Below, piece by piece: positions 3,612-41,068 of a stretch of DNA of 64,000 bases. Below the pieces are notes generated by a model, which saw nothing but the letters and a program-made list of their open reading frames with translations, had not been told where the DNA came from and ran no database searches. The stretch is from Vicinamibacterales bacterium. GTDB lineage: Bacteria > Acidobacteriota > Vicinamibacteria > Vicinamibacterales > UBA8438. The DNA lies in assembly GCA_965222265.1 (NCBI GenBank), contig CBDCTP010000003.1:3710841-3774840 (forward strand), given 5' to 3'. Each line of letters starts with the position of its first letter. The stretch's first letter is position 1. The position numbers were made by a program, and so were the translations under genes.

Positions 3612-3771
3612 GCGGGCCTCGGCTGCCCAATGGCGGGATCTGGTGCGATTGTATACCCCGCCGGGTACGAACGCGGTCGGCGGCCTCCCCTCAGGCGCCC
3701 GCCGGCACGGCGCCCGGCTCGCATCGGTGTCGATCGATGCTTCTCGCGTCCCATGTTGATAGGATGACCAC

Positions 3772-5569: not shown

Positions 5570-6586
5570 ATGAGAAGGGGTTTCTTTGGTGTGTTGTACG
5601 TTCTGACGCTGGCAGCCGTCGTGGGGCTGCCCGGCATGGCGGAGGCCCAGGCGCCCGCGGAAGGCTGGACGGCGCCCCGCACGGCCCACGGCCATCCCGA
5701 TCTGCAGGGGGTGTGGGCCAACAACAGCGCCACGCCGTTGCAGCGGCCGACGGCCCTGACGGACCGCGAGTTTCTCACCGACGAGGAGGTGGCCAGCCTG
5801 AAGTCCCGCGCGGACGAGCTGTTCGCGCTCGACGCCGACGACGCGGCCTTCGGCGACAGCGTGTTCGCGGCGGCGCTGGCGGCGGCCGAGGACTTCTCGT
5901 CGGCCGACACGCAGACCGGCAACTACAACCAGTTCTGGATGGTCGAGCGCAACTGGGACAACCGCACGTCGCTCATCGTCGATCCGCCGAACGGGCGCCT
6001 GCCGCAGCGCACGGCGGCAGCCGAGGCGCGGCTGGAGGCGTACAACGCGGGCCGGCAGCGGCACGCCCACTGGACCGACGACCGGAGCCTCGGCGAGCGC
6101 TGCATCACGTTCGGCGCGCCGCGGCTCGGCGCGGGCTACAACTCGTACTATCAGGTCTTCCAGACGGCCGACCACGTGGTCCTGCTGATGGAGATGGCGC
6201 ACGACGCCCGCATCATCCCGCTGGCCGATCGTCCGCCGCTCGACGAGGACATCCGGCTCTGGCACGGCGACTCGCGGGGCCACTGGGACGGCGACACGTT
6301 GGTCGTCCAGACGGCCAACTACTCCCCGAAGAACTACTTCATGGGCGCCCAGGACAACCTGCGCATCGAGGAGCGCTTCACGCGCGTGGCGCCGGACGTG
6401 CTGGAGTACGAGGTCCGGGTGGATGACCCGACGACCTGGACCGACCCCTGGACGGCGGTCATCCGGATGAACCGGAGCGAGGACGCCCTCTACGAGTATG
6501 CCTGTCACGAAGGCAACATCGGCATGGAGGGGATCCTGTCCGGGGCGCGCGTGCTCGAGCGGGCGGAGGCGGAAGGCGAGCGCTAG
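5570..6586 (+). CDS. Secreted hypothetical protein, co-oriented 61 nt downstream of the PQQ dehydrogenase
   Basis: 338 aa with normal coding composition. AGGAGGAGG Shine-Dalgarno before the ATG and a signal peptide (VLTLAAVVGLPGMAEAQA). I recognise no family; the conserved-looking motif is HGHPDLQGVWANN. Confidence 0.7.
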   Translation: MRRGFFGVLYVLTLAAVVGLPGMAEAQAPAEGWTAPRTAHGHPDLQGVWANNSATPLQRPTALTDREFLTDEEVASLKSRADELFALDADDAAFGDSVFAAALAAAEDFSSADTQTGNYNQFWMVERNWDNRTSLIVDPPNGRLPQRTAAAEARLEAYNAGRQRHAHWTDDRSLGERCITFGAPRLGAGYNSYYQVFQTADHVVLLMEMAHDARIIPLADRPPLDEDIRLWHGDSRGHWDGDTLVVQTANYSPKNYFMGAQDNLRIEERFTRVAPDVLEYEVRVDDPTTWTDPWTAVIRMNRSEDALYEYACHEGNIGMEGILSGARVLERAEAEGER

Positions 6587-6600
6587 CCTCGTGAATCCGC

Positions 6601-6634
6601 GGCCGCGGCTCCGCCGGGCGGCGGAGCCGCGGCC
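6601..6634. terminator. Perfect 15-bp GC hairpin between convergent genes (candidate bidirectional terminator, no U-tract)
   Basis: GGCCGCGGCTCCGCC (6601-6615), loop GGGC, GGCGGAGCCGCGGCC (6620-6634). It lies 15 nt after the stop of 5570..6586 and upstream of the stop of the minus-strand kinase gene. Confidence 0.4.
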
Positions 6635-6745
6635 ACCGTGGGTCCCACCGTTGGAAGCTGGAGGCTGACGCGAGGTCGGCCCTGTCGGCAGCAGTGGCGG
6701 TCGGCGAGACCGCTTCGGCTCTCGCCGGTTCGACGCGGAGGGGCG

Positions 6746-9091
6746 TCACAGGTCGCCCGGTCCGGGCATGCGGTAGCCGACGCCGCGCTCGTTGAGGATG
6801 TACCTCGGCCTGGTCGCATCGTCGCCCAGCTTGCGGCGGAGCCGCTTCACGACGGCGTGGACCTGCTTCGGGTCGTCGCGGCCCCGATCCCGTCCGCCCC
6901 ACGCCTGGCGCTGCAACGAGTGGTACGTCACCACCCGTCCCGCGTTGACCGAGAGCACGCGGAGCAGTTCGAACTCGGTGGCCGTCAGTTCCACGAGCCG
7001 TTCCCCCACGGTGATACGGCGCTGCTCGTAGTGGATGGCCAGGTCCCCGAGCTGGAAAGGGGCAGGCTCGGCCAACCGGCGCAGTGCCGCCCGCACTCGC
7101 GCCGTCAGCTCGGACGGCGAGAAGGGCTTGACGATGTAGTCGGCGGCTCCCGCATCCAGCGTTCTGACGACCGACTCGTCGCCGCCGTAGGCGGAGATGA
7201 AGATGACCGGCAGGTCCTCCAGTTCGGGGGTGCGCTCCATCAACTCGATGCCGCTGGTCCCGGGCAGAAACAGGTCCAGCAGGACCAACCCGGGCTTGTG
7301 CTTTCTGACGAGGCCGGGCAGTTCCTCCGGGTCACCCGTCACTATCGGGGCGTAGCCCGCCTCGCTGAGCGCATCCCGAACGTACCGCAGCATCTGCGGG
7401 TCGTCGTCGACGACCAGGATGCGCGTCCGCTCCTGCCCCCTCCGAGACGGGCGCGGCCGGCCCGGTGACCGGCCGCCTGCGCCGCCGCCGGCCTCTTCGG
7501 CGACCGGCACCGTGAAGGTGAACCGCGTGCCGCGGCCCACCCCCCCGCTCTCGGCCCTGATGCGGCCCCCATGCGCCTCGACCAGCCCCTTGCAGATGGC
7601 CAAGCCCAGGCCGTACCGCCCGAGCCCGGGCTCCCGCTCGCCGCCGGCCGCGCCGACGTGCCTGCGGAACAGGTGCGGCAACTGCTCCGGCGGCACGCCC
7701 CGGCCTTCGTCGGAAACAGAGATCGCCACATGCTCACCGCCCCGCTCCGCGGCGACGCGGATGGGGGACGACTCCGAGGAATGCCTCGCCGCGTTCGAGA
7801 AGAGGTTGCCGAGGACCTGGACGATGCGCGCCGGGTCGGCCATCACTCGCGGCAGGTTGTCCGGCAGGTCGATGCGCAAGGCGTGCCTGCCGCCGCCGCC
7901 CAGGAACGTGTTCCAGGCCTGGTCCACCAGGCCGGCCACGTCCGCCGGCTCGGGAGCGACCGCCAGCGTGCCGGTCTCGATGCGTCCCTGGTCCAGAAGG
8001 TCGCCGATCAGGCTGCGCATGTGGTCGGCCTGCTCGTCGATGACTCGGAAGAACTGCAGCATCTCGGCTGGGTCCGGGGGCCGTGAGGCGCCCAGCACAG
8101 TGGCAGTCGAGCCCTTGATCGAGCTCAGCGGCGTTCGCAGTTCGTGGCTCACCATGCCCAGGAATTCGGTCCGCAGTTGCTCGATCTCCTCCAGCGGCGC
8201 CAGATCCTGCAGCGTGACCACGACCGATTCGACCGCGCCGGTCCCCGCACGGATAGGCGTCGAGTTGACCAGCATGGTGACGCTCCGGCCGTCGGGAACC
8301 GATAGTGTCATCTCCTCCGCACGCACCGTTTCGCCGTTACTGAATTGCTGCGCCAGAGGGAAATCCCCCAAGGCAATCTCGCGCCCGTCTCCGCGCCGGC
8401 ATGTGACCAGGTCCAGCAGTTGCTCCGGGGAGCGGCCCGGCGTCTGCAGGGCCTCGACAAGCCGCAGCGCTTCCCGGTTGAACGACACGGGCCTGCCGCC
8501 GCCGTCGAAGACCACGACGCCAACCGGCGACGTCTCGATCAAGGCCTCCAGGTCGGCCCGCGCCAGCCGCTCGTGGCGGTGGATCCGCGCGTTGGCGATA
8601 GCCGTCGCCGCCTGCGATGCGAAGAGCACGAGAATTTCCTCGTCGGCGCTGGTGAATTCCCGACCACCTTCCTTCTCGGCCAGAAAGAAGGTGCCGACGT
8701 GCGCGTCGCGGTGCCGCATCGGCGTCCCCTGGAAGGTCTTCGATCGCATCAGGTCCGACGAGAAGCCGAGCGACCGGACATAGGCGGGCAGGTCTCCCAG
8801 CCGCAGCGGCGCGGCCAGGTCGCGAAAGTGCTCGAAGAGCCGCGGCCCGTCAGACCAGGCGGCCATCTGCTGCTTCTCCTTCGGCGTGAAGCCGGAGGTG
8901 ACGAACCCCTCGATGTGCCCGGCGTCGTCGACGGTCACGATCACGCCATAGCGGGCGCCGGTCAGGCCGCGGGCGCTGTCGACGACCTCCTGCAGCACGG
9001 TGTCGGGGTCGAGGCTCGAGCTGATGCGCAGGAGGGCCGCAATCAGCCTGGAGACGCGCTCCTGGAGCGCCGCGTCGGGATTGTCCTGCAT
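6746..9091 (-). CDS. Fused sensor histidine kinase / OmpR-type response regulator (GAF-PAS-HisKA-HATPase-REC-winged helix), no TM segment
   Basis: 781 aa with, in order: a GAF-like N-terminus; a PAS-like region (LIETSPVGVVVFDGGGRPVSFN); the H-box FLGMVSHELRTPLSSIKG; an ATPase region (VLGNLFSNAARHS...DEGRGV...GLGLAICKGLVEAHGG); a Gly/Pro linker; a receiver (RILVVDDDPQM...LVLLDLFLPGTSG...DYIVKPF); and a C-terminal wHTH (LTATEFELLRVL...VKRLRRKLGD...ILNERGVGYRM). Confidence 0.9.
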   Translation of the reverse strand: MQDNPDAALQERVSRLIAALLRISSSLDPDTVLQEVVDSARGLTGARYGVIVTVDDAGHIEGFVTSGFTPKEKQQMAAWSDGPRLFEHFRDLAAPLRLGDLPAYVRSLGFSSDLMRSKTFQGTPMRHRDAHVGTFFLAEKEGGREFTSADEEILVLFASQAATAIANARIHRHERLARADLEALIETSPVGVVVFDGGGRPVSFNREALRLVEALQTPGRSPEQLLDLVTCRRGDGREIALGDFPLAQQFSNGETVRAEEMTLSVPDGRSVTMLVNSTPIRAGTGAVESVVVTLQDLAPLEEIEQLRTEFLGMVSHELRTPLSSIKGSTATVLGASRPPDPAEMLQFFRVIDEQADHMRSLIGDLLDQGRIETGTLAVAPEPADVAGLVDQAWNTFLGGGGRHALRIDLPDNLPRVMADPARIVQVLGNLFSNAARHSSESSPIRVAAERGGEHVAISVSDEGRGVPPEQLPHLFRRHVGAAGGEREPGLGRYGLGLAICKGLVEAHGGRIRAESGGVGRGTRFTFTVPVAEEAGGGAGGRSPGRPRPSRRGQERTRILVVDDDPQMLRYVRDALSEAGYAPIVTGDPEELPGLVRKHKPGLVLLDLFLPGTSGIELMERTPELEDLPVIFISAYGGDESVVRTLDAGAADYIVKPFSPSELTARVRAALRRLAEPAPFQLGDLAIHYEQRRITVGERLVELTATEFELLRVLSVNAGRVVTYHSLQRQAWGGRDRGRDDPKQVHAVVKRLRRKLGDDATRPRYILNERGVGYRMPGPGDL

Positions 9092-18478: not shown

Positions 18479-18826
18479 ATGGGCGCGGCCGTCGCCGTCT
18501 GGCTCCTGGTGTCCTGGGGCTGCGGGGTCGCCGGCCCGGACGGAGACGCCGCGCGCCCGGCCGCGCCCGACAATGGGCTCCCGCTCGTCAACGAAAACTG
18601 GCGCATCGCCGAGATGGCGACCGCCCACGGCGCCTTCACCGTCGAGGTTGAGGTGGCGGACGGGGTGGACACGGCCGCCCTCGCGCGCGAGCTGATCCGG
18701 CCGCTGCAGGACCGGTACACGGAAGTGCTGGTCTATTTTTACGCGCGGGATTCCGCCGGCGATCTGCCGCAGCTGCGGGTGCAGTGGACGGCCGAGCACG
18801 GCTACATCGAGACCCGCTACAGGTAG
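18479..18826 (+). CDS. Small putative lipoprotein, hypothetical
   Basis: Within track ORF 18296..18826. I start at ATG 18479 (MGAAVAVWLLVSWGCGV..., a lipobox-like SWGC). The downstream composition is normal (LVNENWRIAEMATAHGAFTVEVEVADG...). Confidence 0.55.
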   Translation: MGAAVAVWLLVSWGCGVAGPDGDAARPAAPDNGLPLVNENWRIAEMATAHGAFTVEVEVADGVDTAALARELIRPLQDRYTEVLVYFYARDSAGDLPQLRVQWTAEHGYIETRYR

Positions 18827-18834
18827 CAGGAGAC

Positions 18835-18961
18835 CAGGAGTCTGCGCCGCAGACTCCGCAAGGCGCGCACAGCGCGCCTCGGCGGGAGCGGCGCGGGGCG
18901 CAGGGGTCCCCGCAAGCGGACGCCGGGGGTTCGGAGCACAGCCCCGTCTGATTGAGGCTAG
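18835..18961 (+). repeat. GC-rich multi-hairpin intergenic repeat, copy A (full length, short hairpin-1 loop)
   Basis: CAGGAGTCTGCGCCGCAGACTCCGCAAGGCGCGCACAGCGCGCCTCGGCGGGAGCGGCGCGGGGCGCAGGGGTCCCCGCAAGCGGACGCCGGGGGTTCGGAGCACAGCCCCGTCTGATTGAGGCTAG. It fills the gap between the convergent stops at 18824-18826 (+) and 18958-18960 (-). Confidence 0.9.
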
Positions 18962-20298
18962 CCGAACAGGGCGTTGACGATGAACGTGGCGGCCAGGATG
19001 CCGGCAACGTCCGCCAGCAGGCAGGCGGGCACCGCGTGGCGGGTGTCCTTGACGCCGACGGCGCCGAAGTAGACGGCCAGCACGTAGAACGTGGTCTCGG
19101 TGCTGCCCTGGTAGGTGCTGACCAGGTAGCCGATCAGCGAATCGGGACCGTACTCCGTCATCGCCTCCGAGGCCACCCCCATGGCGCCCGAGCCGGACAG
19201 CGGGCGCAGCAGGGCCATTGGCAGGGCCTCGGCCGGGATGCCGACCAGGCCGGTCAGCGGCGCCGCGAGCCCGATCAGCACGTCCAGCGCCCCGGACGCC
19301 CTGAACATCCCGACCAGCACGAGAATGGCGACCAGATACGGAATGATGCGGATGGCGACCTGAAACCCGTCCCGGGCGCCCTCGACGAGCGACTCGTACA
19401 CGCGCACGCCGCGGACCCAGCCGTAGAGCACGAGCGCGGCGACGACCGCCGGCAGAAGCCACGACGAGGCCATGTCGCGCAGCACGTCGCCGGCCGGGAC
19501 GGCCGGGTCGCGGTTGAAGAGGACGCTCGCGGCCGCGATCAGGAAGGTCGCCCAGAACCCCCAGCCCAGCGCCCGGCGCCCTGCGGCGGGACGGGCGGCG
19601 CTGACGGTTGCCGCCGCCGGGTCGGCCGCCGGCGTCTCGCGCCCGGGTGCGGCCGCGTCGGGGGCCGGCGCCGCGAGCGGTGGCGGGGCCGAGGCACGAT
19701 AACGGGGCAGGCGGGCCAGAAGCAGCGCGGCCGTCACCCCGACGACGGTGGCCGCCGCGGTGGCGAACCACGTGGGCAGCAGGATGCCGGCCGCGTCGCC
19801 CGAGCCGAGCGCCGCACGGATGCCGATCATCCCGGTCGGGAGCAGGGCCAGCCCCGAGGTATTGATGGCCAGGAAGAGCACCATGTGATTCGTGGCCACC
19901 CCGTGCCGGCTGTTGTGCTTGTCGAGCTCCTCGATCGCCTTGATGCCGAAGGGCGTGGCCGCATTCGCCAAACCCATCATGTTGGCCGCGATGTTCAGGA
20001 GCATGGCGCTCATGGCCGGGCTGTCCGGAGGCAGTCCCGGGAAGAGCAGGCGCATGACCGGGCTGACGAGCCGCGCCAGGCGCGCCATCAGCCCGGCGTC
20101 GGACGCGACGCGCATGAGGCCGAGGAAGAAGGCCATGACCCCCACGAGGCCGATCGCAAGGTCGACGGCGCCGCGCGCCGACGAGACGACCGCATCGGTC
20201 AGGGCCCGCATCTCCCCGCTGAGCGCCGCGGCGAGAATCGAGGCGAGGGCGACGACGACGAAGATGCCGTTCAGCATGCGCGTCTGCTGCGGCTCCAT
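18958..20298 (-). CDS. Nucleoside-recognition-domain membrane protein (SpmA/SpmB-like fusion)
   Basis: Track ORF 18958..20352. The likely start is MEPQQTRMLNGIF (20298) or MLNGIF (20277). Motifs LLNIAANMMGLANAATPFGIKAIEEL and ...GSGAMGVASE...STETTFYVLAVYFG are typical of Gate/nucleoside-recognition proteins. Confidence 0.8.
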   Translation of the reverse strand: MEPQQTRMLNGIFVVVALASILAAALSGEMRALTDAVVSSARGAVDLAIGLVGVMAFFLGLMRVASDAGLMARLARLVSPVMRLLFPGLPPDSPAMSAMLLNIAANMMGLANAATPFGIKAIEELDKHNSRHGVATNHMVLFLAINTSGLALLPTGMIGIRAALGSGDAAGILLPTWFATAAATVVGVTAALLLARLPRYRASAPPPLAAPAPDAAAPGRETPAADPAAATVSAARPAAGRRALGWGFWATFLIAAASVLFNRDPAVPAGDVLRDMASSWLLPAVVAALVLYGWVRGVRVYESLVEGARDGFQVAIRIIPYLVAILVLVGMFRASGALDVLIGLAAPLTGLVGIPAEALPMALLRPLSGSGAMGVASEAMTEYGPDSLIGYLVSTYQGSTETTFYVLAVYFGAVGVKDTRHAVPACLLADVAGILAATFIVNALFG

Positions 20299-20437
20299 GG
20301 TAGCAGGACGCCGTCCGGGCCGGCGTCCGCCGCCGCAGAGGCCGTTGCGCACGACGGGCGGCGGCGGAGGATGTGCGGGGCGCCGTGGCGAACCGCGCTA
20401 TGCTGTAGCGGAACGCTCTCATTGTCAGGAGATACCG

Positions 20438-21703
20438 ATGCTGAACGGAGCTGTATCTGGTGGTTCGTTCGCCGCCGCCGCGGTGTCCGCCGCCCTCGTG
20501 GCGGCCTTGAACGTACCGGCCGCGGCGCAGGAGACCCAACAGCGGCAGGGCTGTCGCGGTTGCGAATCGTCGGCCGCGCTGTCCGCCGAGCCGCAGGTCT
20601 TCCACACGCAGGAGCAGAGCTTCCGGGTGGTGCCGATGAAGGGCCTGGTGCGCCCCTGGGCGCTGGCCTTCCTGCCGAACGGCGACCTGCTGATCACCGA
20701 GCACGACGGCCGGCTCCGCATCGTGCGCGACGGCGTGCTCGATCCCGAGCCGCTAGCCGGCCTGCCAGAGGTGTTCACACCCCGCCGCAAGGGGCTGATG
20801 GACGTCGCGCTGCATCCCCGCTTCCTGGAGAACCAGTTCGTCTACTTCACCTACCACAAGGCGAGCCCCAAGCACCGGCTGGCCGCCACGACGGTGCTCG
20901 CCCGCGGCAAGTTCGAGGGGCGGGGCGCACTGGTGGAGGTGCGGGACCTCTTCGTGGCGGACGCCGACTACATGGGCGCGGCGCAGACCTCGCGCATCGT
21001 CTTCGGACCCGACGGCAAGCTGTACATGGTGATCGGCCAGCCGGCGCGTTACGAGGTGGGCTCGGCCGACTACGCGCAGGACCCGTCCAACCACGCCGGC
21101 AAGATGCTGCGCCTCAACGACGATGGCAGCGTTCCCGACGACAATCCGTTCGTCGACGCGCCGGGGCATCGCCCCGAGATCTACGCCCTCGGCATCCGCA
21201 ACGCGAACGGGCTGGCCTGGCACCCGGACACCGGCGAGCTGTGGGAGACCGAGAACGGGCCGCAGGGCGGCGACGAGGTCAACATCATCCGCGCCGGCGC
21301 CAACTACGGCTGGCCGGTCGTCTCGTACGGACGGGCGTACTCGGGCGACCTGACCGGGACGCATTCCGGGCCGCAGCAGACCGCCCGGCAGGCGGAGGGG
21401 ATCGAGGACCCGGTCTTCTTCTGGAGCCCGTCGATCTCGCCCGCCGGGCTGATGTTCTATACCGGCGACCGCTTCCCGAACTGGCAGGGCGACCTGTTCG
21501 TCGGCGGGCTGCGGGGCGCGGAGCTCCAGCGCCTGATCTTCAACGATCGCGGCCTGCTGGTACGCCAGCAGTCGCTGCTTCGCGAGCTCAGGCAGCGCAT
21601 CCGGGAGGTCAAGCAGGGGCCGGACGGCCTGATCTACCTGCTGACCGACGAGCAGGACGGCGCACTGCTGCGGCTCGAGCCCGTCGACCCGGAGAAAGGC
21701 TAG
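20438..21703 (+). CDS. PQQ-dependent sugar dehydrogenase (soluble glucose/sorbosone dehydrogenase family), paralogue 1
   Basis: Start at ATG 20438 (MLNGAVSGG..., with a CAGGAG Shine-Dalgarno). Signal peptide, then LAFLPNGDLLITEHDGRLRIV, GIRNANGLAWHPDTGELWETENGPQGGDEVNII and GANYGWP. Confidence 0.88.
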   Translation: MLNGAVSGGSFAAAAVSAALVAALNVPAAAQETQQRQGCRGCESSAALSAEPQVFHTQEQSFRVVPMKGLVRPWALAFLPNGDLLITEHDGRLRIVRDGVLDPEPLAGLPEVFTPRRKGLMDVALHPRFLENQFVYFTYHKASPKHRLAATTVLARGKFEGRGALVEVRDLFVADADYMGAAQTSRIVFGPDGKLYMVIGQPARYEVGSADYAQDPSNHAGKMLRLNDDGSVPDDNPFVDAPGHRPEIYALGIRNANGLAWHPDTGELWETENGPQGGDEVNIIRAGANYGWPVVSYGRAYSGDLTGTHSGPQQTARQAEGIEDPVFFWSPSISPAGLMFYTGDRFPNWQGDLFVGGLRGAELQRLIFNDRGLLVRQQSLLRELRQRIREVKQGPDGLIYLLTDEQDGALLRLEPVDPEKG

Positions 21704-21707
21704 CTGC

Positions 21708-21846
21708 TGGGAGTCTGCGCCCTAGTCAAGGGTGCAGACTCCGCAAGGCGCGCACAGCGCGCCTCGGCGGGAGCGGCGCGGGGCGAAGGGTCCCCGCAAG
21801 CGGACGCCGGGGGGTTCAGGGCGCAGCCCCGTCTGATTGCAGCTAG
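21708..21846 (+). repeat. GC-rich multi-hairpin intergenic repeat, copy B
   Basis: Same sequence family as copy A, with hairpin-1 loop GCCCTAGTCAAGGGT. It is bounded by TAG 21701-21703 (stop of the + gene) and CTAG 21843-21846 (stop of the - gene). Confidence 0.9.
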
Positions 21847-24071
21847 CGGGACGCAGCCGTGGCCGCGTTGCCCAGCGCGTCGGCGGCCCGGATGGCGAGC
21901 CGGTCGATCTGATCGCGGTCGACGGACAGCTGGAAGCGCTCGACCCTGGAATCGGCGATCCCGTCGAGCGGATACAGCACCTCCCAGCGTGCGGTGTCGA
22001 GCGAATACTCGACGCGGCGCACCGGAGACTGCCCGTCGGTGACGACGAACGAGACCGCGAACCCGCCCGCGTCCGGGCGCGGGGCATCGATGTCGATGCG
22101 GGGCGGCGAGTTGTCCACGTCGAACGGCTTGCTCTCGGCGAGGCCCTCGAGGCCTGTCCCTGGCGCGTTGGTGTCGGCGTCGGAGGCGACGAGGCGGACG
22201 AGGTAGGTCCCGTCGGGAGCGGACGTCGTATCCCACGTGTAGATGGAGCTCCCGATCCCGGTCCGCAGCGCGCGCCACGACGTGTCCGTCTCGGTGCGCA
22301 CCAGCAGATCGAAACGCAGCGTGTCGTTGTTCGGGTCGCGCGCCGTCCAGACGAACGTGCGGAGCCCTCGCCGGTAGACGCGGCGTCCCAGCGCCGTCTG
22401 CTGGGTGTCACTCTGCGCTCCGCCGGCGCCGTTCCCGGAACCCGCTTCCAGACGGTCGTCGAGACCCGCGATGGGCGGATCTCCGCTCGCGAACGGCCGC
22501 TGGAAGGCCACGCCCGGGTCGTGCACGGTCAGCGTCGTGATCTCGGGCCGCAGGTTCTGCGGCAGGTACGCGGCCGTGACCGAGAGCAGCGTCGGGGTGT
22601 CGGCGCCGCCGCGCAGCTCGGCCTTCCATTGCAGATAGCGTGCCCTGGGGCTGGTGATGGGGGAGCCGTCCGCGTCGCTGTAGGCCACTGACCAGGGGCT
22701 CCACGCGTCGTTGGGCGTGGACGTGTTGCCCGACCGGGTGAAGAGCTGCACCGAGCTGTCGCCGGGGATCAGCGCTTGCCAGCGCAACGTGCCCCACCTG
22801 GCGACCGTCCGGGCATCGCGCACGTCCGACAGGTACGCGCCCTGGCCGGCCTGACCGGGCAGCAGTCGATAGACCTTGCCGGGGTTGGCCGTGGCGTAGT
22901 AGCGGGCGCCGCCGGCGCCGGCCGCAAAGCTGGTGACCTGCCGCGCGGGCGCCCGTGCGAGCAGCCGGACCCGCGGCGGATCCTCGGCGACGTGGTAGAT
23001 GCGGCCGCTGGGGCCGGTGCCGATCAGCAGGTCGCCGCGCGCGTCGATCGAGACATCGTACGGCGTCTCCCGCGAGGATTCCCACACCGTGTCCCACACG
23101 CCGTCGGCGCGAATCCGGTAGACGGCGCCCCGCACCGGCGATGTCGGCCCGGCCGTCTGCGCCGGGCGGGCGGTTGTCGCCGAGGTTTGCCCGGCATCGC
23201 CCACGACGACGGCGGTGACCGAGGTGGACGTCGTCACGCGCGGGACGCCGGGCGAGCGTGTGGGCGGCGCTGGCCGGGACGCGGCGCCGCGCGGCGCCGA
23301 CTCGCCGACGGCGACCGCGTAGAGCGTGCCGTCGCCCGCGACGCGGAGCGCCCGAATCTCCGCGTACGGCGAGTCGAGGACGACGAAGCCGCGCCCGTCG
23401 GCGCCGATTCGCAGCACCTGTCCCGGCGTGCCGGTGCCCGCCAGCAGGTTGCCCTCGGCGTCGCGGGCCAGGGCGAGGACGTGCGACGCGTCCGCCTCGT
23501 AGAACACGCTCGCCTCGCCGTCGGGGGACAAGTGGTAGATGCGGCCCGCGTCACCGGTGGCCACGAGGCGGTTGCCCGCCGCGTCGGCCGCGATCGCCCA
23601 GATATAGCGGTCGTCGGGGTCGAAGACCTGCTCGGAGCGGCCGCTGCCGACCCGGAACAGCGCGCCGTCGGGAGAGGTGCCGACCAGGGCTTCGCCCGCA
23701 CCATAGGGGTGGACGGCATGGACGTTCTGCTCCGCGGTCTCGAAGACCGTCGAGGCGGTGCCGTCCGGCCCCAGGCGAAACACCCTGCCGTCGCCGCCGC
23801 TGCCGATCCACAGCGCGCCGCCCGCCGGCGCGAGCGACCACAGGAACGGGGCGGTCGCTTCGTAGAGCAGCTCCGCGTCGCGGGCCAGCGTCAGCCGGCC
23901 GTCCGCGTCGATCGACACCCTGTCGGCCTCGCCGGCGAGGAACTCCGCCTGCGTCGAGATCCGCCAGAAAACGGGCGCGGATGCGTGGAGCACGACGACC
24001 GGCAGGCAGGCTGCGGCCGCAATTGCGGCGCGGCGGAGGCCCGTTCGCCAGCGCGAGCGCGGGCTCGTCAT
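21843..24071 (-). CDS. Large secreted beta-propeller plus Ig-like/beta-sandwich repeat protein, hypothetical
   Basis: Track ORF 21843..25277. The real start is ATG 24071 (MTSPRSRWRTGLRRAAIAAAACLPVVVLHA), overlapping the upstream gene stop as ATGA. Repeated blades follow (GGDGRVFRLGPDG, SPDGALFRVGSG, GDAGRIYHLSPDG, GTPGQVLRIGADG, GPSGRIYHVAED, ANPGKVYRLLPG). C-terminal beta-sandwich-like modules follow (ARYLQWKAELRG..., FDVDNSPPRIDI...). Confidence 0.8.
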   Translation of the reverse strand: MTSPRSRWRTGLRRAAIAAAACLPVVVLHASAPVFWRISTQAEFLAGEADRVSIDADGRLTLARDAELLYEATAPFLWSLAPAGGALWIGSGGDGRVFRLGPDGTASTVFETAEQNVHAVHPYGAGEALVGTSPDGALFRVGSGRSEQVFDPDDRYIWAIAADAAGNRLVATGDAGRIYHLSPDGEASVFYEADASHVLALARDAEGNLLAGTGTPGQVLRIGADGRGFVVLDSPYAEIRALRVAGDGTLYAVAVGESAPRGAASRPAPPTRSPGVPRVTTSTSVTAVVVGDAGQTSATTARPAQTAGPTSPVRGAVYRIRADGVWDTVWESSRETPYDVSIDARGDLLIGTGPSGRIYHVAEDPPRVRLLARAPARQVTSFAAGAGGARYYATANPGKVYRLLPGQAGQGAYLSDVRDARTVARWGTLRWQALIPGDSSVQLFTRSGNTSTPNDAWSPWSVAYSDADGSPITSPRARYLQWKAELRGGADTPTLLSVTAAYLPQNLRPEITTLTVHDPGVAFQRPFASGDPPIAGLDDRLEAGSGNGAGGAQSDTQQTALGRRVYRRGLRTFVWTARDPNNDTLRFDLLVRTETDTSWRALRTGIGSSIYTWDTTSAPDGTYLVRLVASDADTNAPGTGLEGLAESKPFDVDNSPPRIDIDAPRPDAGGFAVSFVVTDGQSPVRRVEYSLDTARWEVLYPLDGIADSRVERFQLSVDRDQIDRLAIRAADALGNAATAASR

Positions 24072-25900
24072 CCTGCCTCGATGTCCACCGTGAGCATGCG
24101 GGAGCCGGACACCGCGTGGTCGGTGCGGATCTCCCACTCGCCGAGCGTGGCCTGGGAGAGCCGCCGGAGTCCGCTGCCGCTCCGGTCGCCCTCGAGCACC
24201 GCCAGCACCGACGGCGGCAGTGCCGGCATCGGCGCACCCCGAACGACCGCGCCCGGCTGGGAGCTGAGCAGCTTGACGTAGAGGCGGTTGTTGCGCCGGG
24301 TCGCGTTGAGGGTGCGGATGATCTGCTCGACCGTGCCGGGTGCCTGCGTCGATCGCGACCCGCGGAGCTCGCGCGCATTCAGCTGCGGCGCATCCGACAC
24401 GAGCAGCTGCAGCCGCCCGGCCGCGTGGCGCGGGATGTCGACCGTGACCGTCTCGACCAGCTCGGCGCCGCCGTAGCCGCGCGCGAGCACATGGACCCGC
24501 ACGGCATCGCCGGGGCGGATGCGCGGCGTGTCGAGCCAGACGCGCTCGATAATCGCCGTGCGCGGCTTCTCCGCCGACGTGATCTCGATGTCGATCCCAT
24601 CCAGCTCGAGGGGTGCGATGCGGTTGTTCAACAGCGTGGTCAAGGGATTGGCAATCGCCCCGGCCGCGCCGAACAGGGCGGTGTCGCCGCTGTAGATGTC
24701 CTCGAACGCGACGTCGGCGTGGCCGCGGACGCGCGTCGTGCTGCTGAGGGCATAGGTCGACGCCCCGCGCTCGCGGGTCCAGGACAGGAACGTGCTCAGT
24801 ACGCCGGTGTAGGTCAGCAGCGGAGTGAACAGCCGGTCCTCGACGACCTCGAACGCGAACTCGCGTGTCAGTTGACGCTCCGGCTCGTGCAGCTTGACGC
24901 TGACGGGGACGAGAGCCGGCCCCGGTCCGAGCGCGCCGAAGATGCCGGTCGAGCGGTCCTGATCCAGCGTCCCGACGACCTCCCCGATCGCCGCGATCTT
25001 CGACGACAGGGCCAGGCTCGGCAGCAGCGTCGTCACGGAGGCCCGGGTCATCGGGAAGCGTATCGGCCCGAGGTTGTAGAACGGGTGGCCGAAGGCGTAG
25101 ACGCGGCCGTCGTCCACGAGCGTCACGGTGCCCGTGCCGGCCATCGTCAGGTCGCCCCGCACGAGCGTCGCCCCGATCGGATCGCCTGGCTGCAGGGGTG
25201 CGGCCGGCGCCGCGCGTGGGGTCTGGCCGGCGCCGACGGCGGCGACGAAACCGCCGCCGTGGAACGCGGCGGTCCACAGCTCCCGGACGCGCGGATCGAA
25301 TCCGTTGAGCACGACCGGCGTGGCGATGGGCCGCAGCAGGGTGCCCAGCCGCTGGCCGGCCGCCGGCGGCAGGCCGAGCGCGCGCACGTGATCGGGCTGC
25401 CGGGCGAACGGGCGCAGCCGGTCGAATGCCGCGCCGATCGCCGCCTGCAGGTCGGCGGGCGTCGCCGGAAACGCCGGCGGCAGCATCGCCGGCCGCACGA
25501 CCGCGGCCCGGTTGGCGTCCGCCGCCGCCATCTCGCCGATCGGGGTGATGCCGGCAATCGGCTCCTTCGGAAACGAGCCGAGCGCGTACGAGACGGCGCC
25601 GACCAGACGGTCGTCGATGTAGACCGGGCTGCCGCTCATGCCCTGGATGACGCCGGTCTCGGCCAGCGGTCCGCCGGACAACCTGGCCACGATGACGCTG
25701 CGGCGCGGGCCCATGACGTTGCGCAGGACGCCGAGGATCTCGACGCCGAACTCCTCACGGCGGGTCCCGTCGAACACGGTGAGGCCGACGCCGCGCATGC
25801 CCGGCCGCACCTCTTCCAGGAGCATGCGCGCCGTGGTCGCCGGGAGCGTCACGGTGCACAGGCCCGCCGCCAGGAAGAGGATGGGGGCGATGCGTCTCAT
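24068..25900 (-). CDS. Peptidase S55 (SpoIVB-like) family serine protease, secreted
   Basis: 610 aa with a signal peptide (APILFLAAGLCTVTLPA). Contains VIQGMSGSPVYIDDRLVGAVSYA (GxSGSP serine-protease motif) and ...VYAFGHPFYNLGPIRFPM..., typical of S55 domain proteins. Confidence 0.8.
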   Translation of the reverse strand: MRRIAPILFLAAGLCTVTLPATTARMLLEEVRPGMRGVGLTVFDGTRREEFGVEILGVLRNVMGPRRSVIVARLSGGPLAETGVIQGMSGSPVYIDDRLVGAVSYALGSFPKEPIAGITPIGEMAAADANRAAVVRPAMLPPAFPATPADLQAAIGAAFDRLRPFARQPDHVRALGLPPAAGQRLGTLLRPIATPVVLNGFDPRVRELWTAAFHGGGFVAAVGAGQTPRAAPAAPLQPGDPIGATLVRGDLTMAGTGTVTLVDDGRVYAFGHPFYNLGPIRFPMTRASVTTLLPSLALSSKIAAIGEVVGTLDQDRSTGIFGALGPGPALVPVSVKLHEPERQLTREFAFEVVEDRLFTPLLTYTGVLSTFLSWTRERGASTYALSSTTRVRGHADVAFEDIYSGDTALFGAAGAIANPLTTLLNNRIAPLELDGIDIEITSAEKPRTAIIERVWLDTPRIRPGDAVRVHVLARGYGGAELVETVTVDIPRHAAGRLQLLVSDAPQLNARELRGSRSTQAPGTVEQIIRTLNATRRNNRLYVKLLSSQPGAVVRGAPMPALPPSVLAVLEGDRSGSGLRRLSQATLGEWEIRTDHAVSGSRMLTVDIEAG

Positions 25901-26032
25901 GGAGCAGGCCGCAGCGTCGACTGCCTATAGCCGATGTGTATAGCGGACCGCAGGCGGCAGGTCAAGGATGTTCGGGCGCCGGGGGAACCGCGCTATGCTG
26001 TAGCGGAACCTTCTCATGGTCAGGAGATGCCG

Positions 26033-27316
26033 ATGCTGAACGGAGCCATTCCACGTGAGCTGCTGGCTGTCGCGAGCGTCGCCGTCGCGGTGCTGCTGGG
26101 CGTGCCGGCCGCGGCGCAGGAGTTCGAGCCGGCGATCGACGAAAGGCAGCGGCGGACCGACTGTCAGGGCTGCGAGCCGTCGGCCGCCCTGTCCGACGAG
26201 CCGCGGATCTTCCACACGCAGGAGCAGAGCTTCCGGGCGGTGCCCATGACGGGCCTGGTGCGCCCGTGGGCGCTTGCCTTCCTGCCGAATGGCGACCTGT
26301 TGATCACGGAGCACGGCGGCCGGCTTCGCATCGTGCGCGACGGCGTGCTCGACCCCGAGCCGCTGGCCGGCATCCCGGAGGTGTTCACCAGGCGCCGCAA
26401 GGGGTTGATGGACATCGCACTCCATCCCCGCTTCGCGGAGAACCAGTTCGTCTACTTCACCTACCACCAGCAGAGCTCGGCGCACCGCATGGCGGGCACG
26501 CCGGTACTCGCCCGCGGCAAGTTCGAGGGGCGGGGCGCGCTCGTGGAGGTGCGCGACCTGTTCGTGGCGGAAGCGCCGTACATGGGCGGAGCCCAGACGG
26601 CTCGCATCGCGTTCGGGCCGGACGGCAAGGTGTACATGGTCATCGGTGTCCCGACCCGCAACCCGGTGGGCCAGGCCGAGAGCGCCCAGGACCCGGCCGA
26701 CCACGCCGGCAAGGTGCTGCGGCTGAACGACGACGGAACCGTTCCCGAGGACAACCCGTTCGTCGACACGCCGGGCCACCGGCCGGAGATCTACGCGCTC
26801 GGCATCCGCAACGCGAACGGGCTCGCGTTCCACCCGGAGACCGGCGAGCTGTGGGAGACGGAGAACGGCCCCCAGGGCGGCGACGAGGTGAACATCATCC
26901 GCGCCGGCGCCAACTACGGCTGGCCGGTCGTCTCGTACGGACGGGCGTACTCCGGCGATCTCACCGGCACGTACTCCGGGCCGCAGCAGACCGCCCGGCA
27001 AGCGGAGGGCATCGACGACCCGGTCTTCTTCTGGAGCCCGTCGATCTCGCCGGCGGGCATGCTGTTCTACACGGGCGACCGCTTTCCGAACTGGACCGGA
27101 GACCTCTTCGTCGGCGCGCTGCGCGGGCGGGAGGTGCAGCGCCTGATCTTCAACGATCGCGGCCTGCTGGTGCGCCAGCAGTCGCTGCTGCGCGAGTTCA
27201 GGCAGCGCATTCGGGAGGTGAGGCAGGGGCCGGACGGCCTGATCTACGTGCTGACCGACGAGGAGGACGGCGCGCTGCTCCGGCTCGAGCCGGTCGACGC
27301 GGAGGCGGCGCCGTAG
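26033..27316 (+). CDS. PQQ-dependent sugar dehydrogenase, paralogue 2
   Basis: Start at ATG 26033 (MLNGAIPRELL...). It is highly similar to 20438..21703 along the whole length, including about 80 nt of 5' leader. Confidence 0.88.
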   Translation: MLNGAIPRELLAVASVAVAVLLGVPAAAQEFEPAIDERQRRTDCQGCEPSAALSDEPRIFHTQEQSFRAVPMTGLVRPWALAFLPNGDLLITEHGGRLRIVRDGVLDPEPLAGIPEVFTRRRKGLMDIALHPRFAENQFVYFTYHQQSSAHRMAGTPVLARGKFEGRGALVEVRDLFVAEAPYMGGAQTARIAFGPDGKVYMVIGVPTRNPVGQAESAQDPADHAGKVLRLNDDGTVPEDNPFVDTPGHRPEIYALGIRNANGLAFHPETGELWETENGPQGGDEVNIIRAGANYGWPVVSYGRAYSGDLTGTYSGPQQTARQAEGIDDPVFFWSPSISPAGMLFYTGDRFPNWTGDLFVGALRGREVQRLIFNDRGLLVRQQSLLREFRQRIREVRQGPDGLIYVLTDEEDGALLRLEPVDAEAAP

Positions 27317-27548: not shown

Positions 27549-27585
27549 GCCGGCAGGTCGACATTCAGGACGAGACGGATTTTCG

Positions 27586-27622
27586 AGCCTCTTCAGCCGC
27601 AACGGTTGAAGAGGCTTTTTTT
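27586..27622 (+). terminator. Intrinsic terminator (attenuator) upstream of aroDE
   Basis: AGCCTCTTCA (27586-27595) pairs with TGAAGAGGCT (27607-27616). The stem is extended by G-U plus CCG/CGG, with loop CAA, and is followed by a T-run to 27622. It lies 19 nt before GTG 27641. The alternative pairing CTGGAGGGGCT (27529-27539) with AGCCTCTTCAG (27586-27596) would form an antiterminator. Confidence 0.8.
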
Positions 27623-27640: not shown

Positions 27641-29098
27641 GTGCGAGCCAGGCTGTGCGCGACGGTAACGGGCCGAACGATGGCGGAGCTGCGGGCGCGC
27701 CGCGACGGGACGGACGGGGCGGACCTGGTCGAGCTGCGCCTCGATCAGGTGCGCGACCCGGATGTCGCCGCCGCGCTCGCGGGCCGGCGCACCCCCGTGG
27801 TGGTGACCTGCCGGCCCGCCTGGGAGGGAGGCGGCTTCCGCGGCTCCGAGGAGGAGCGCCGCGGCCTGCTCGAGCGGGCGCTGGAGCTCGGCGCCGACTA
27901 CGTCGATCTGGAATGGCGGGCCGGACTGGACGACCTGATTCGGGCCCGGCGCGGGCGGAACGTCGTCCTGTCGACGCATGATTTCGAGCGGATGCCCGGC
28001 GACCTCGCCGACCGCTACCGGGCCCTGCGGGCGACCGGCGCCGAGGTCGTGAAGATCGCCGCCCGGGCGCGCAGCCTGACCGAGACCCTGGCCCTGCTGG
28101 AGGTCGGCGCCGGCGAGCCGGGCCGCGTGCTGGTCGCGATGGGGCCGGCGGGCACGGCGTCCCGCGTGCTGCCCGACCGCTTCGGGTCGGCCTGGACCTA
28201 CGCCGGCGACGGCGTCGCCCCGGGTCAGATCGCCCTGCGCCGCATGCTCGACGAGTTCCGGGTCCGCTCGGTCTCGGACTCGACACGGCTGTACGGCGTG
28301 CTCGGTGCGCCGGTAGGGCACTCGCTGTCGCCCGCGATGCACAACGCCGCCTTCGCCGCCGCCGGGTGCGATGCCATCTACCTGCCCCTGGAGGCGGCGA
28401 GCGCGGACGACTTCTGGACGTTCGCGCGGGCGCTGAGGCTGCGCGGCGCGAGCGTGACGGCGCCCTTCAAGGAGGCCGTTCTGCCGGGCCTGGCCGCGAC
28501 GGACGCGCTGGTGCGTCAGGTCGGCGCCGCCAACACCCTGCGGATCGGCGAGCGCGGGTGGGAGGGTATCAACACGGACGTGCCGGGCTTTCTGGAGCCG
28601 CTGGCCGGCCGCATGGCGCTGCAGGGCAGCCGTGCGACCGTGCTCGGCGCCGGCGGCGCGGCGCGCGGCGTGGCGGTGGCGCTCGACGGCGCGGGGGCGC
28701 AGATCACGGTCTGCGCGCGCAACGCCGAGCGCGCCGCCGGCGTGGCGCGGCTGGTCGGCGGCAGCGCCCGCGGGCTGCCGCCGGCGGCCGGCTCGTGGGA
28801 CCTGCTCGTCAACACGACGCCGGTCGGCACGGCCCCCGGCGTCGGGGACAGCCCGCTGCCCGGGGGACCGTTCGACGGCCGCCTGGTGTACGACCTGGTC
28901 TACAACCCGGCCACGACCCGGTTGCTGGCGGACGCGTCGGCCGCCGGATGCGGCATCCTCGGCGGGCTGCCGATGCTGGTGGCCCAGGCCGTCAGGCAGT
29001 TCGAATGGTGGACGGGCAAGGCCGCGCCGCGCGACGCGTTCGCGGCGGCGGCGCGGCGGCGGCTGGCCGCAGCGGAAGACCAGGAGTCTGCGCCGTAG
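27641..29098 (+). CDS. aroDE: Bifunctional 3-dehydroquinate dehydratase (type I) / shikimate 5-dehydrogenase
   Basis: 485 aa. The N-terminal half is AroD-like (LVELRLDQV..., VVLSTHDF..., VKIAA). The C-terminal half is AroE-like (LYGVLGAPVGHSLSPAMHNAAF, VTAPFKEAV, GAANTL, INTDVPGF, VLGAGGAARGVAVAL, LVNTTPVG). The last codons, QESAP*, lie inside repeat copy C. Confidence 0.9.
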   Translation: MRARLCATVTGRTMAELRARRDGTDGADLVELRLDQVRDPDVAAALAGRRTPVVVTCRPAWEGGGFRGSEEERRGLLERALELGADYVDLEWRAGLDDLIRARRGRNVVLSTHDFERMPGDLADRYRALRATGAEVVKIAARARSLTETLALLEVGAGEPGRVLVAMGPAGTASRVLPDRFGSAWTYAGDGVAPGQIALRRMLDEFRVRSVSDSTRLYGVLGAPVGHSLSPAMHNAAFAAAGCDAIYLPLEAASADDFWTFARALRLRGASVTAPFKEAVLPGLAATDALVRQVGAANTLRIGERGWEGINTDVPGFLEPLAGRMALQGSRATVLGAGGAARGVAVALDGAGAQITVCARNAERAAGVARLVGGSARGLPPAAGSWDLLVNTTPVGTAPGVGDSPLPGGPFDGRLVYDLVYNPATTRLLADASAAGCGILGGLPMLVAQAVRQFEWWTGKAAPRDAFAAAARRRLAAAEDQESAP

Positions 29099-29214
29099 AA
29101 CCGGTGCAGACTCCGCAAGGCGCGCACGGCGCGCCTCGGCGGGAGCGGCGCGGGGCGCAGGGGTCCCCGCAAGTGGACGCCGGGGGTTCGGGGCAAAGCC
29201 CCGTCTGAGTAAAG
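29081..29214 (+). repeat. GC-rich multi-hairpin repeat, copy C (inside the operon, between aroDE and trpE)
   Basis: Same family. The aroDE stop TAG (29096-29098) lies in the hairpin-1 loop GCCGTAGAACCGGT. The element's right end abuts trpE ATG 29215. Confidence 0.9.
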
Positions 29215-30729
<1,515 letters not shown>

Positions 30730-35848: not shown

Positions 35849-36201
35849 CCGACAAGCCGAAGGATCCGGCGGACGACCAGGACAGCGCGACGGCGGACGC
35901 GGCGGGGCAGATGCGCCAGTTTCGGGAGCGCATCGACCGGCTGGACGCCGAGATCGTCCGGTTGTTGAACGCTCGCGCGGAATGCGCCCTGGCGCTCGGC
36001 CGGCTCAAGGAGGCGGTCGGTCTGGACACCTACCAGCCGGACCGGGAGCTTGCGGTGCTCGCGCACGCGCGGGCGACGAACGACGGGCCGCTCGATGCCG
36101 GCGCCATCACGCGCCTGTTCGAGCGCATCATCGACGAGAACCGCCGGCTCGAGCGGCTGGCGGAGTGCAAGGACACGCCCTCGCAGGAGTCTGCGCCGTA
36201 G
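35845..36201 (+). CDS. Chorismate mutase (AroQ class)
   Basis: Start ATG 35845 overlaps the trpA stop (ATGA); the track offers 35815. FRERIDRLDAEIVRLLNARAECALALGRLK and RELAVLAHAR...ITRLFERIIDENRRLE match the CM_2 helices. The C-terminal QESAP* is encoded by repeat copy D. Confidence 0.85.
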   Translation: MTDKPKDPADDQDSATADAAGQMRQFRERIDRLDAEIVRLLNARAECALALGRLKEAVGLDTYQPDRELAVLAHARATNDGPLDAGAITRLFERIIDENRRLERLAECKDTPSQESAP

Positions 36202-36318
36202 AAGGTGCAGACTCCGCAAGGCGCGCACAGCGCGCCTCGGCGGGAGCGGCGCGGGGCGCAGGGGTCCGCGCAAGCGGACGCCGGGGGTGCGGGGCGCAGC
36301 CCCGTTTGATTGAAGCTA
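36184..36318 (+). repeat. GC-rich multi-hairpin repeat, copy D (inside the operon, between chorismate mutase and DAHP synthase)
   Basis: Same family. The stop TAG 36199-36201 lies in the hairpin-1 loop GCCGTAGAAGGT. Hairpin 3 is perfect here (GTCCGC GCAA GCGGAC). Confidence 0.9.
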
Positions 36319-36335
36319 TGGAGGTTGCAGAACCT

Positions 36336-38775: not shown

Positions 38776-38782
38776 CCGGCCT

Positions 38783-38803
38783 GCCTGCCCGTGGTGGGCA
38801 GGC
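38783..38803. terminator. 8-bp GC hairpin between convergent genes (candidate bidirectional terminator)
   Basis: GCCTGCCC (38783-38790), loop GTGGT, GGGCAGGC (38796-38803). It lies between the stop at 38775 (+) and the stop at 38834 (-). Confidence 0.4.
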
Positions 38804-38833
38804 GCGGGGATGGCGGGAGGGCGGCAGGGGTGC

Positions 38834-39444: not shown

Positions 39445-39507
39445 CCTACCGCAGAGCGTCCAGCGTGTGAAGCAGGAACCGGGCCAGGCGCCCACTATAA
39501 TGCACGG

Positions 39508-41037
<1,530 letters not shown>

Positions 41038-41068
41038 GCTTCGGACTCTCCAACTTGCGGCCGTCGAC

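Follow-up and report, generated by a model that had tools for sequence, protein, structure and literature searches.

A hairpin repeat at the ends of genes

The window analysed here is a stretch of 64,000 nt from the genome of a Vicinamibacterales bacterium (assembly GCA_965222265.1, contig CBDCTP010000003.1, positions 3,710,841 to 3,774,840, forward strand) with a G+C content of 70.5%. According to blastn and alignment, a repeat of about 135 nt is present in it eight times, at a density of about one unit per 8 kb, and several copies lie directly against the stop codons of neighbouring genes. The question raised by this locus is whether the repeat inserts into CTAG in the manner of an IS5-type insertion sequence and provides its neighbours with stop codons from its own ends, which was one of two explanations offered in a preliminary description of the sequence, or whether the contact has another origin. 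With moderate confidence, the repeat is read here as a young mobile hairpin repeat of gene ends, comparable to repetitive extragenic palindromes (REPs) and bacterial interspersed mosaic elements (BIMEs), and not as a miniature inverted-repeat transposable element (MITE) of a DDE transposon. The comparison is drawn because the same behaviour at gene ends has been published for REPs, of which this repeat would be a larger architectural variant.

The consensus of the element is GCCAGGAGTCTGCGCCGTAGAACGGTGCAGACTCC GCAA GGCGCGCACAGCGCGCC TCGGCGGGAGCGGCGCGGGGCGAAGGGGTCCCCGCAAGCGGACGCCGGGGG TT CGGGGCGCAGCCCCG TCTGATTGAAGC, arranged as four hairpins followed by an unpaired tail of 12 nt (GTCTGATTGAAG). 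It consists of three modules: an optional palindrome of 31-35 nt (hairpin 1), a near-invariant core (hairpins 2-4), and the tail. A genome scan with a 27-mer from the core matched at least 89 stretches, and all 89 listed belong to metagenome-assembled genomes of Vicinamibacterales/Vicinamibacteraceae (Acidobacteriota), from at least nine genomes. All family statistics below refer to the window and these 89 loci, which were chosen because they contain the element, so that "background" values come from element-rich neighbourhoods.

Genes in the window were identified by the G+C content of codon positions (GC3 for the third), a codon log-odds caller whose training set was Pfam-supported genes, and Pfam. 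The flanking genes were judged real by GC3 or codon scoring, Pfam, or conservation in relatives. The repeat had been described as filling the stop-to-stop gaps of convergent genes, which holds for copies A, B, and H, and not for copy E in a divergent gap or for copy G between two minus-strand genes. The stop positions reported for A, B, G, and H were all correct when checked against the sequence.

Copy A (18834-18961, plus strand; blastn, alignment, and cmsearch with 132 bits) is a full element with a shortened hairpin-1 loop. It fills the convergent gap between a conserved gene of 115 aa (18479-18826), supported by codon scoring and by orthologs called in the related loci L090, L093, and L094, and the gene of a Gate-domain transporter (18958-20298, Pfam PF07670). 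The TAG stop of the first gene (18824-18826, plus strand) lies 6 nt upstream of the copy, and that of the transporter (CTA at 18958-18960, minus strand) overlaps its final bases. Copy B (21708-21846, plus strand; blastn, alignment, and cmsearch) is likewise a full element, located between a glucose/sorbosone dehydrogenase (GSDH) gene (Pfam PF07995), whose TAG (21701-21703, plus strand) lies 2 nt upstream of it, and a convergent gene at 21843-24071 recognised by its GC3 profile, whose TAG (CTA at 21843-21845, minus strand) comes directly after the ...GATTGCAG of the copy. Copy H (59211-59074, minus strand; cmsearch with 161 bits) is the window copy nearest to the family consensus and lies between the gene of a flavin adenine dinucleotide (FAD)-linked oxidase, identified by Pfam, and a convergent gene at 59233-60330. 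The TAG of the oxidase gene (59075-59077, plus strand) directly abuts the 3' end of the copy. In these three copies the CTA of the convergent stop follows directly on GAGG, GCAG, or GAAG.

Copies C and D lie within a co-directional aromatic amino-acid cluster. Copy C (29080-29217, plus strand; blastn, alignment, Pfam, and cmsearch) spans the entire intercistronic gap from the fused aroD/aroE gene to trpE, and copy D (36184-36319, plus strand; blastn, alignment, and Pfam) lies between the genes of chorismate mutase and 3-deoxy-D-arabino-heptulosonate 7-phosphate (DAHP) synthase. In both, the upstream gene enters the element by 18 nt in the frame CAG GAG TCT GCG CCG TAG and stops at the TAG of the hairpin-1 loop (29096-29098 for AroDE and 36199-36201 for chorismate mutase, both plus strand), which gives the proteins the tail QESAP*. 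The related locus L087 is arranged in the same way as copy D.

The two remaining sites differ in context. Copies G1 and G2 (43037-43247, plus strand; blastn and cmsearch) form a head-to-tail pair of core units that lack hairpin 1 and run antisense to the genes on both sides. The TAG of ftsK (CTA at 43248-43250, minus strand; Pfam) had been placed inside a CTAG end of this copy; it lies 2 nt past the conserved GAAGC end of G2, with the CTA coming after GAAGCCA, and therefore stands beside the element and not within it. Copy E (39444-39308, minus strand; blastn and alignment), with the 5' end GCTAGGAG, occupies a divergent gap directly upstream of the start of the gene at 38834-39295 (minus strand).

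A separate feature was seen at copy B, where the stop regions TAGCTGC (21701-21707) and GCAGCTA (21839-21845) are perfectly complementary over 7 bp and are predicted to close a stem enclosing the whole element. This pairing is due to an A-to-C change in the tail (GATTGCAG). An analogous pairing of 4 bp is found at copy A.

CTAG and the termini of the element

As the preliminary description had supposed, CTAG is uncommon in this DNA. It occurs 23 times in the window, compared with about 60 sites expected from a Markov model of trinucleotides or about 172 from mononucleotide composition, and ten of the 23 sites are stop codons. The claim that the element itself has CTAG termini did not hold. The 5' terminus of the family is GCCAGGAG... 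with the consensus GCCAGGAGTC, and the 3' terminus is ...GATTGAAGC with the conserved end ...GAAGC, beyond which the sequences diverge. CTAG is a minority variant at both ends; at the 5' end it derives from GCTAGG, the source of CTAG in copies E and H, and two copies have CGTAGG.

Among the TAG stops that abut the element, only 15 of 34 lie in CTAG, which equals the expectation from codon position 3. The element contacts the stop codon and not CTAG. In the window all four abutting stops lie in CTAG (p about 0.04); this is a coincidence of the window, and the sites result from TAG stops combined with G or C at codon position 3.

Read as an IS5-type MITE, the element would be a non-autonomous DDE transposon with CTAG (YTAR) as its insertion target; this target would be duplicated, and the ends of the element would become the stops of the neighbours. 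The window itself suggests such a reading, with A, B, and H ending in CTAG, E and H beginning with it, the strong under-representation of CTAG and its concentration at stops, and the enrichment of TAG among abutting stops. However, the terminal inverted repeats of an IS5-type MITE are lacking: the 5' GCCAGGAGTC and the 3' ...GTCTGATTGAAGC are not complementary, and only internal hairpins occur. The element-free relatives carry CTAC or CTAT at sites A and B, and the empty locus L013 carries TAA, so that the expected duplication of CTAG between filled and empty sites was not found. In every filled-versus-empty comparison the whole spacer differs, replaced and never split by an insertion with a duplicated target, and the position of the stop junction varies (+12, +8, +2). 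Together with the non-CTAG termini of the family, these findings largely refute the IS5-type reading, which is considered extremely improbable.

One IS4/IS5-like insertion sequence (DDE_Tnp_1) with 24-nt inverted repeats (TCCTAGCCCGGATTATGCGTGAAG) was found at 14032-15736 of L093, a locus of a relative with 94% identity, and is absent at that place from the window and from the relative OY762226. It was considered as the parent of the repeat and rejected, as its ends are unrelated to those of the repeat; it is the only such element seen in the examined loci.

Orthologous sites in related genomes

Orthologous loci were gathered through homologues of three proteins, the Gate-domain transporter, the FAD oxidase, and FtsK. 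The three relatives are 90-94% identical and comprise OY762226.1 (L090), L094, and L093 (94%), with L092 as outgroup. At sites A, B, and C the element is missing in L090, L093, and L094 according to cmsearch and alignment.

At site A, OY762226 has a spacer of 55 nt that is essentially one perfect 14-bp palindrome. L093 has an 85-nt copy of a second repeat family (type 2, described further below), of which a hairpin-1-like palindrome lies flush on the transporter stop (TGA; TCA on the plus strand), and the spacer of the outgroup measures 18 nt. The C-terminus of the transporter (...FG*) is identical in 69 of the 70 homologues listed, and its stop is at the same position everywhere, written as CTAC in L090 and L092 and as CTAG in the window only. 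The stop of the opposite gene (18479-18826) is TGA in OY762226 and TAG in L093. At site B the relatives carry a type-2 repeat in either orientation, and the C-terminal length of the convergent gene and its TAG stop are unchanged in L090, L093, and L094 (CTAT in L090 and L094, CTAG in L093). At site G the end of FtsK (...VDLQPR*) is essentially invariant across the 49 homologues listed, and the 93% relative L097 has one element unit, another hairpin, and a CTAC stop. Since the stops of the transporter, the site-B gene, and FtsK are kept in relatives, they are ancestral, and the element only abuts them.

Different relations were found at the copies that a gene enters from the 5' side. At site C, the outgroup L092 has an ATGA stop/start overlap of aroDE and trpE without any element, L093 has 14 unrelated nucleotides, and AroDE of the window has gained QESAP* relative to both. 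OY762226 holds only TGATGGAAGC, which resembles the tail of the element and, judged by this likeness, is possibly a tail or deletion remnant and not a virgin site. At site D the orthologous position holds the element in OY762226 (L087) and in L097, with two units in each. The earlier claim that the element donates stop codons is thus correct for C, D, and other copies entered from the 5' side, and incorrect for A, B, and G, where the C-termini and the TAG are ancestral.

For copy H, the stop may be either donated or ancestral, since homologues of the FAD oxidase end in GKIFP followed by a variable tail. In a 93% relative the oxidase ends in GKIFPQESAP*, which places an oppositely oriented hairpin 1 at this gene end. 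At 3700-3790 of L095, likewise from a 93% relative, the FAD oxidase appears to stop at the TAG of the hairpin-1 loop and the convergent neighbour at a reversed tail stop; the reversed module there consists of hairpin 4 plus tail, with about 20 nt between the two stops. The tail QESAP* is common to AroDE, chorismate mutase, the FAD oxidase of the relative, and at least 14 other unrelated proteins, so that the repeats rewrite gene ends.

Two further pairs of loci bear on gain and loss. The filled L060 (CTG TAG followed directly by the element) compares with the empty L013, where TAA comes one codon later and CTAG is lacking. L070 keeps only GCGCCGTAGAAC of the element present in L027, which looks like a deletion remnant. 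Turnover of intergenic spacers is seen between genomes with more than 90% identity.

Copies A, B, D, and H are mutually 95-98% identical. Copy D is only 90-91% identical to the units at the orthologous site of OY762226 and is thus closer to A, B, and H, and the orthologous pair of copy E in the window and L097 is 88% identical, which is about the genome divergence or neutral rate. In view of these ages, the family-wide invariance seems to reflect recent amplification, or replacement, from conserved sources, and strong constraint on each copy is less likely.

A further alternative is that the gaps between stops are filled by interchangeable hairpin cassettes, swapped precisely from stop to stop by a machinery recognising hairpins or stop-proximal sequence. 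The layout of the element, with a single stop per forward frame, no reverse stops, a flexible tail, and a loop TAG conferring QESAP* on many unrelated proteins, would then be an adaptation to life within gene ends and to the re-termination of adjacent ORFs. Where the element is missing in relatives other hairpins are found, and other convergent gaps of the window (6586-6746 and 38775-38834) also hold GC-rich hairpins near stops. Given the palindromes and type-2 repeats of the relatives and these other hairpins, flush contact with stops is not peculiar to the repeat. The cassette-swapping alternative is considered improbable; if it were true, it would represent a targeted, gene-end-specific mode of insertion of mobile DNA that is not described for REPs or MITEs.

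In one of these two gaps, a perfect 20-bp GC hairpin (CCGCGGCCGCGGCTCCGCCGGGCGGCGGAGCCGCGGCC...) was observed at 6598-6640; in L008 the position homologous to it (77% identity) is occupied by an array of two units of the repeat.

Gene-end contacts across the family

Both neighbouring genes were called for 115 arrays. In 40 arrays both neighbours are co-oriented with the element, in 34 the upstream gene is co-oriented and the downstream gene convergent, in 26 both are antisense, and 15 arrays lie in divergent gaps. In 49 of the 63 arrays that have a convergent downstream gene, at most 15 nt lie between the end of hairpin 4 and the start of that gene's stop, with peaks at +12 (GAAG followed by CTA or TTA), +8, and +2 (GT followed by CTA, that is, GTCTGA mutated to GTCTAA). 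At the other end, 29 hairpin-1 copies follow a co-oriented upstream gene, and in 17 of them this gene stops at the TAG or TAA of the loop, each time in one and the same frame, a share above the chance value of one third (binomial p = 0.0045). Three further upstream genes stop at the GC[TAG]GAG position, and four read through the whole core to the TGA of the tail. Abutting stops at either end are TAG in 60% of cases, compared with 34% for the other genes in the same loci (Fisher p about 4e-4 and 3e-4).

These contacts correspond to an unequal distribution of stop codons over the two strands. The forward strand of the consensus has exactly one stop per frame (TAG at 18, TGA at 127, and TGA at 131), and the reverse strand has none in all three frames. 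With every frame closed on the forward strand and none on the reverse strand, a convergent open reading frame (ORF) must keep or create its stop at or inside the unpaired tail.

Since the reverse strand is free of stop codons, long spurious ORFs run through it antisense to real genes. In the window these were observed at 18952-21846 (plus strand), 21843-25277 (minus strand), 39421-41070 (minus strand), and 41332-43041 (plus strand). Automatic annotation of these genomes with 70% G+C is likely to mis-call gene ends at the repeats because of the open reverse strand and its spurious ORFs, and the repeats also break short-read assemblies.

An embedded small ORF from GTG 25 to TGA 127 was considered for translational coupling and set aside, since its AGGAG, 16 nt upstream, would be hidden within hairpin 1.

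Conservation, fold, and possible function

A nhmmer profile built from the window copies identified 196 units in 136 arrays, and a covariance model gave 140 matches with cmsearch. Hairpin 1 is lacking in about 60% of the units. A unit may stand alone or belong to a head-to-tail array, of which the longest has six units; the spacing is about 95 or 115 nt. The repeat represents an apparently undescribed and very abundant family in Vicinamibacterales, a dominant though little-studied soil lineage.

The largest arrays were seen in L077 (OY762226), with four units at 2396-2830 (minus strand) and six at 4137-4719 (plus strand). These inverted arrays bracket an ordinary gene of a major facilitator superfamily (MFS) transporter (2908-4137), and no transposase lies between them.

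The core has 55 invariant columns in 33 full copies from several species. Where the sequence does vary, the changes tend to be compensatory. In the covariation analysis the paired share of cells is 96.4%, and changes on both sides were seen for 23 pairs, compared with 10 in shuffles; since the alignment was fitted to the model, the figures for hairpin 1 are inflated. Hairpin 4 is closed by a C-G pair in 90 copies and by a U-A pair in 33, and two positions have G-U pairs specific to the forward strand. For copy H, the predicted fold has -85.8 kcal/mol on the forward strand (z = -3.7) and -75.9 kcal/mol on the reverse strand.

This degree of conservation would also be expected if the core (hairpins 2-4) were a multi-copy structured RNA gene, that is, a trans-acting small RNA or a protein-binding RNA or DNA site, with the proximity to genes as a by-product of a compact genome. 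The invariant columns shared between several species, the strand-specific G-U pairs, and the structure z-score agree with such a gene. However, the scan of the whole window at Rfam gathering thresholds gave no match, and a permissive scan of copy H gave chance-level hits only, the best being naRNA4 with 18.8 bits against a cut-off of 59.5 (E = 0.23). Promoter-like sites were looked for and not found, many copies are truncated or overlapped by coding sequence, and the tandem arrays, fast gain and loss, and random orientation suit a repeat and not a gene family. An RNA gene is therefore held to be very improbable.

The second explanation of the preliminary description, a compact bidirectional terminator or 3'-end stabiliser between convergent genes, is plausible as a model of what the element may do. 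In its stronger form, selection would keep the element at each site as a domesticated cassette serving as bidirectional terminator, 3'-end stabiliser, or regulator of translation termination, and its mobility would be secondary. The element takes the place of other GC-rich hairpins in relatives and in other gaps, its predicted fold is strong on both strands, compensatory changes keep the hairpins, the core is near-invariant between species, and hairpin 4 lies 2-15 nt from convergent stops. Work by Liang, Rudd and Deutscher in Mol Cell in 2015 is said to have found that E. coli REPs at most 15 nt from a stop reduce translation, and the spacing seen here falls in the range where those REPs are said to influence translation termination. 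Against such a cassette, copies are gained and lost between genomes that are 90-94% identical, and the old orthologous copy E has drifted as far as given above. Moreover, the 26 arrays antisense to both neighbours and the 15 in divergent gaps do not fit it, and the invariance of the core is equally explained by recent amplification from master copies. A T-tract is also missing despite a canonical terminator nearby. Domestication at each site is regarded as rather unlikely.

The terminator in question lies at 27585-27617, downstream of the second GSDH gene, and consists of a 15-bp stem followed by TTTTT. Canonical terminators therefore coexist with the T-less hairpin repeats in the window. The element was rejected as a canonical intrinsic terminator itself, since it has no T-tract.

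Proposed origin and evidence against it

In the proposed reading as a REP/BIME-like mobile repeat of gene ends, copies have a rapid turnover there, as shown by the absence of A, B, and C from relatives and by the other hairpin cassettes in the corresponding gaps. With one stop in each forward frame and none on the reverse strand, the copies that persist may be those by which adjacent ORFs remain closed. On the 5' side, an entering gene would be cut off after six codons in one frame (QESAP*) and at the TGAs of the tail in the other two. A gene approaching the 3' end would have to retain its own stop at or inside the unpaired tail, which would explain why A, B, and G, with an ancestral TAG, and H sit flush on TAG stops. 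Spread may have occurred by a hairpin or single-strand route, or by recombination or gene conversion, rather than by cut-and-paste transposition with duplication of CTAG. The cluster of hairpins in the 3' untranslated region could act as a barrier to 3' exonucleases or as a structure for factor-dependent or non-canonical termination. Judged by analogy with the hairpins it displaced, the element, if it has a role, probably provides one or both neighbouring transcripts with an RNA structure at the 3' end.

Several observations weigh against this interpretation. A clean empty site with intact flanks was not found among the compared loci, and the apparent replacement of spacers could be insertion followed by deletions. 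The C-terminal motif of RAYT (the REP-associated tyrosine transposase) or of IS200-type transposases was not found in the approximately 0.85 Mb scanned, and the genes between inverted arrays are housekeeping genes (MFS transporter, short-chain dehydrogenase, malate synthase, and others) without a mobilising enzyme. The element lacks the classical GTAG/CGTC tag of REPs, is four times longer, and forms direct instead of inverted arrays. Its orientation relative to flanking genes is only weakly biased, with 40 versus 26 arrays in tandem gaps (p = 0.11). With respect to a role at gene ends, the roughly neutral divergence of the orthologous E copies argues against strong constraint on each copy, no T-tract follows hairpin 4 (GTCTGATTGAAG), and the terminator scan reported no copy of the element. 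In the loci, genes were called with a home-made codon-score caller, for which stops are robust and starts are not.

Comparison with known repeat families

The closest likeness is to REPs, which are abundant GC-rich palindromic intergenic repeats found mostly in convergent or co-directional gaps (Di Nocera, De Gregorio and Rocco 2013, PMC3733652). REPs between convergent genes are found less than 20 bp away from each of the two ORF ends, and GTAG-REP ends frequently supply the TAG stop (PMC3733652). The element shares the placement within about 20 bp of the 3' ends of ORFs in mainly convergent or co-directional gaps, the contact with stops, the supply of TAG, the occurrence of some copies inside ORF ends, and the modular clusters. 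A REP unit is an imperfect palindrome of 20-40 nt, so that hairpin 1 with its 31-35 nt is REP-sized, and it is also paired with another module, that of type 2. In contrast to REPs, the whole unit measures about 135 nt and combines four hairpins with an unpaired tail, hairpin 1 is missing from most copies, and one stop is present in each forward frame. Terminal GTAG or CGTC is missing (the 5' consensus is GCCAGG), with GTAG found in the hairpin-1 loop instead. The head-to-tail arrays also differ from the BIMEs of enterobacteria, which consist of alternating units with conserved linkers. Contact with stops and donation of TAG have thus already been described for REPs; the element extends this habit to a larger multi-hairpin element and is not a new class.

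Other families resemble the element in part. Enterobacterial repetitive intergenic consensus (ERIC) sequences, Correia elements (Neisseria miniature insertion sequences, NEMIS), and IS5-derived MITEs are also multi-copy intergenic repeats of 100-150 nt that are often co-transcribed and can alter mRNA processing or gene ends. However, they have long imperfect palindromes or terminal inverted repeats and target duplication (TA; YTAR for IS5), and the element has neither. As in the palindrome-associated transposable elements (PATEs) of IS200/IS605 and in REPINs, which are mobilised by HUH/Y1 enzymes, there are no inverted termini and no target duplication, a hairpin lies near each end, and the 3' tail is short and unpaired. 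Unlike PATEs, the element has no conserved target of 4-5 nt at its left end, as the sequence upstream of GCCAGG is not conserved. Its units are not inverted pairs, no Y1 motif was found in the scanned DNA, and the replichore or strand bias expected for single-strand transposition is lacking along two long chromosomes, OY762226 and CBDCCO contig_7, on which the strands are mixed.

The mycobacterial interspersed repetitive units (MIRUs) of Mycobacterium, attributed to Supply et al. in 1997, are reportedly head-to-tail units of 50-100 nt in the intercistronic gaps of operons of a GC-rich genome. As at copy C, the ends of the units are said to overlap with the stop and start codons on either side. 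What defines MIRUs is reportedly the presence of small ORFs that are in phase with the adjacent genes, and the four-hairpin architecture is lacking in them.

A second repeat family and a duplicated gene

The second family, type 2, measures about 85 nt and reads CCCGCCAAkCGTCGCC...GGCGCCCAACCAACCCTG, followed by the hairpin-1-like palindrome CAGGAGTCCGCGCCGTTCCACGGCGCAGRCTCCTGG. Copies were found in L090 (8571-8660), L093 (11341-11425, 2952-3033, and 12518-12592), L062 (807-889), L026 (1167-1245), and L008 (2360-2417), and none in the window. Type-2 repeats are also flush with stop codons and are sometimes fused to cores of the repeat described here.

The window further contains two paralogous GSDH genes (20387-20836 and 25982-26446), of which the first is lacking in the outgroup L092. 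Their 5' regions are 87-92% identical, and the identity includes 50 nt before the start codon (GGsGAACCGCGCTATGCTGTAGCGGAAC...), so that the duplication carried a leader or promoter.

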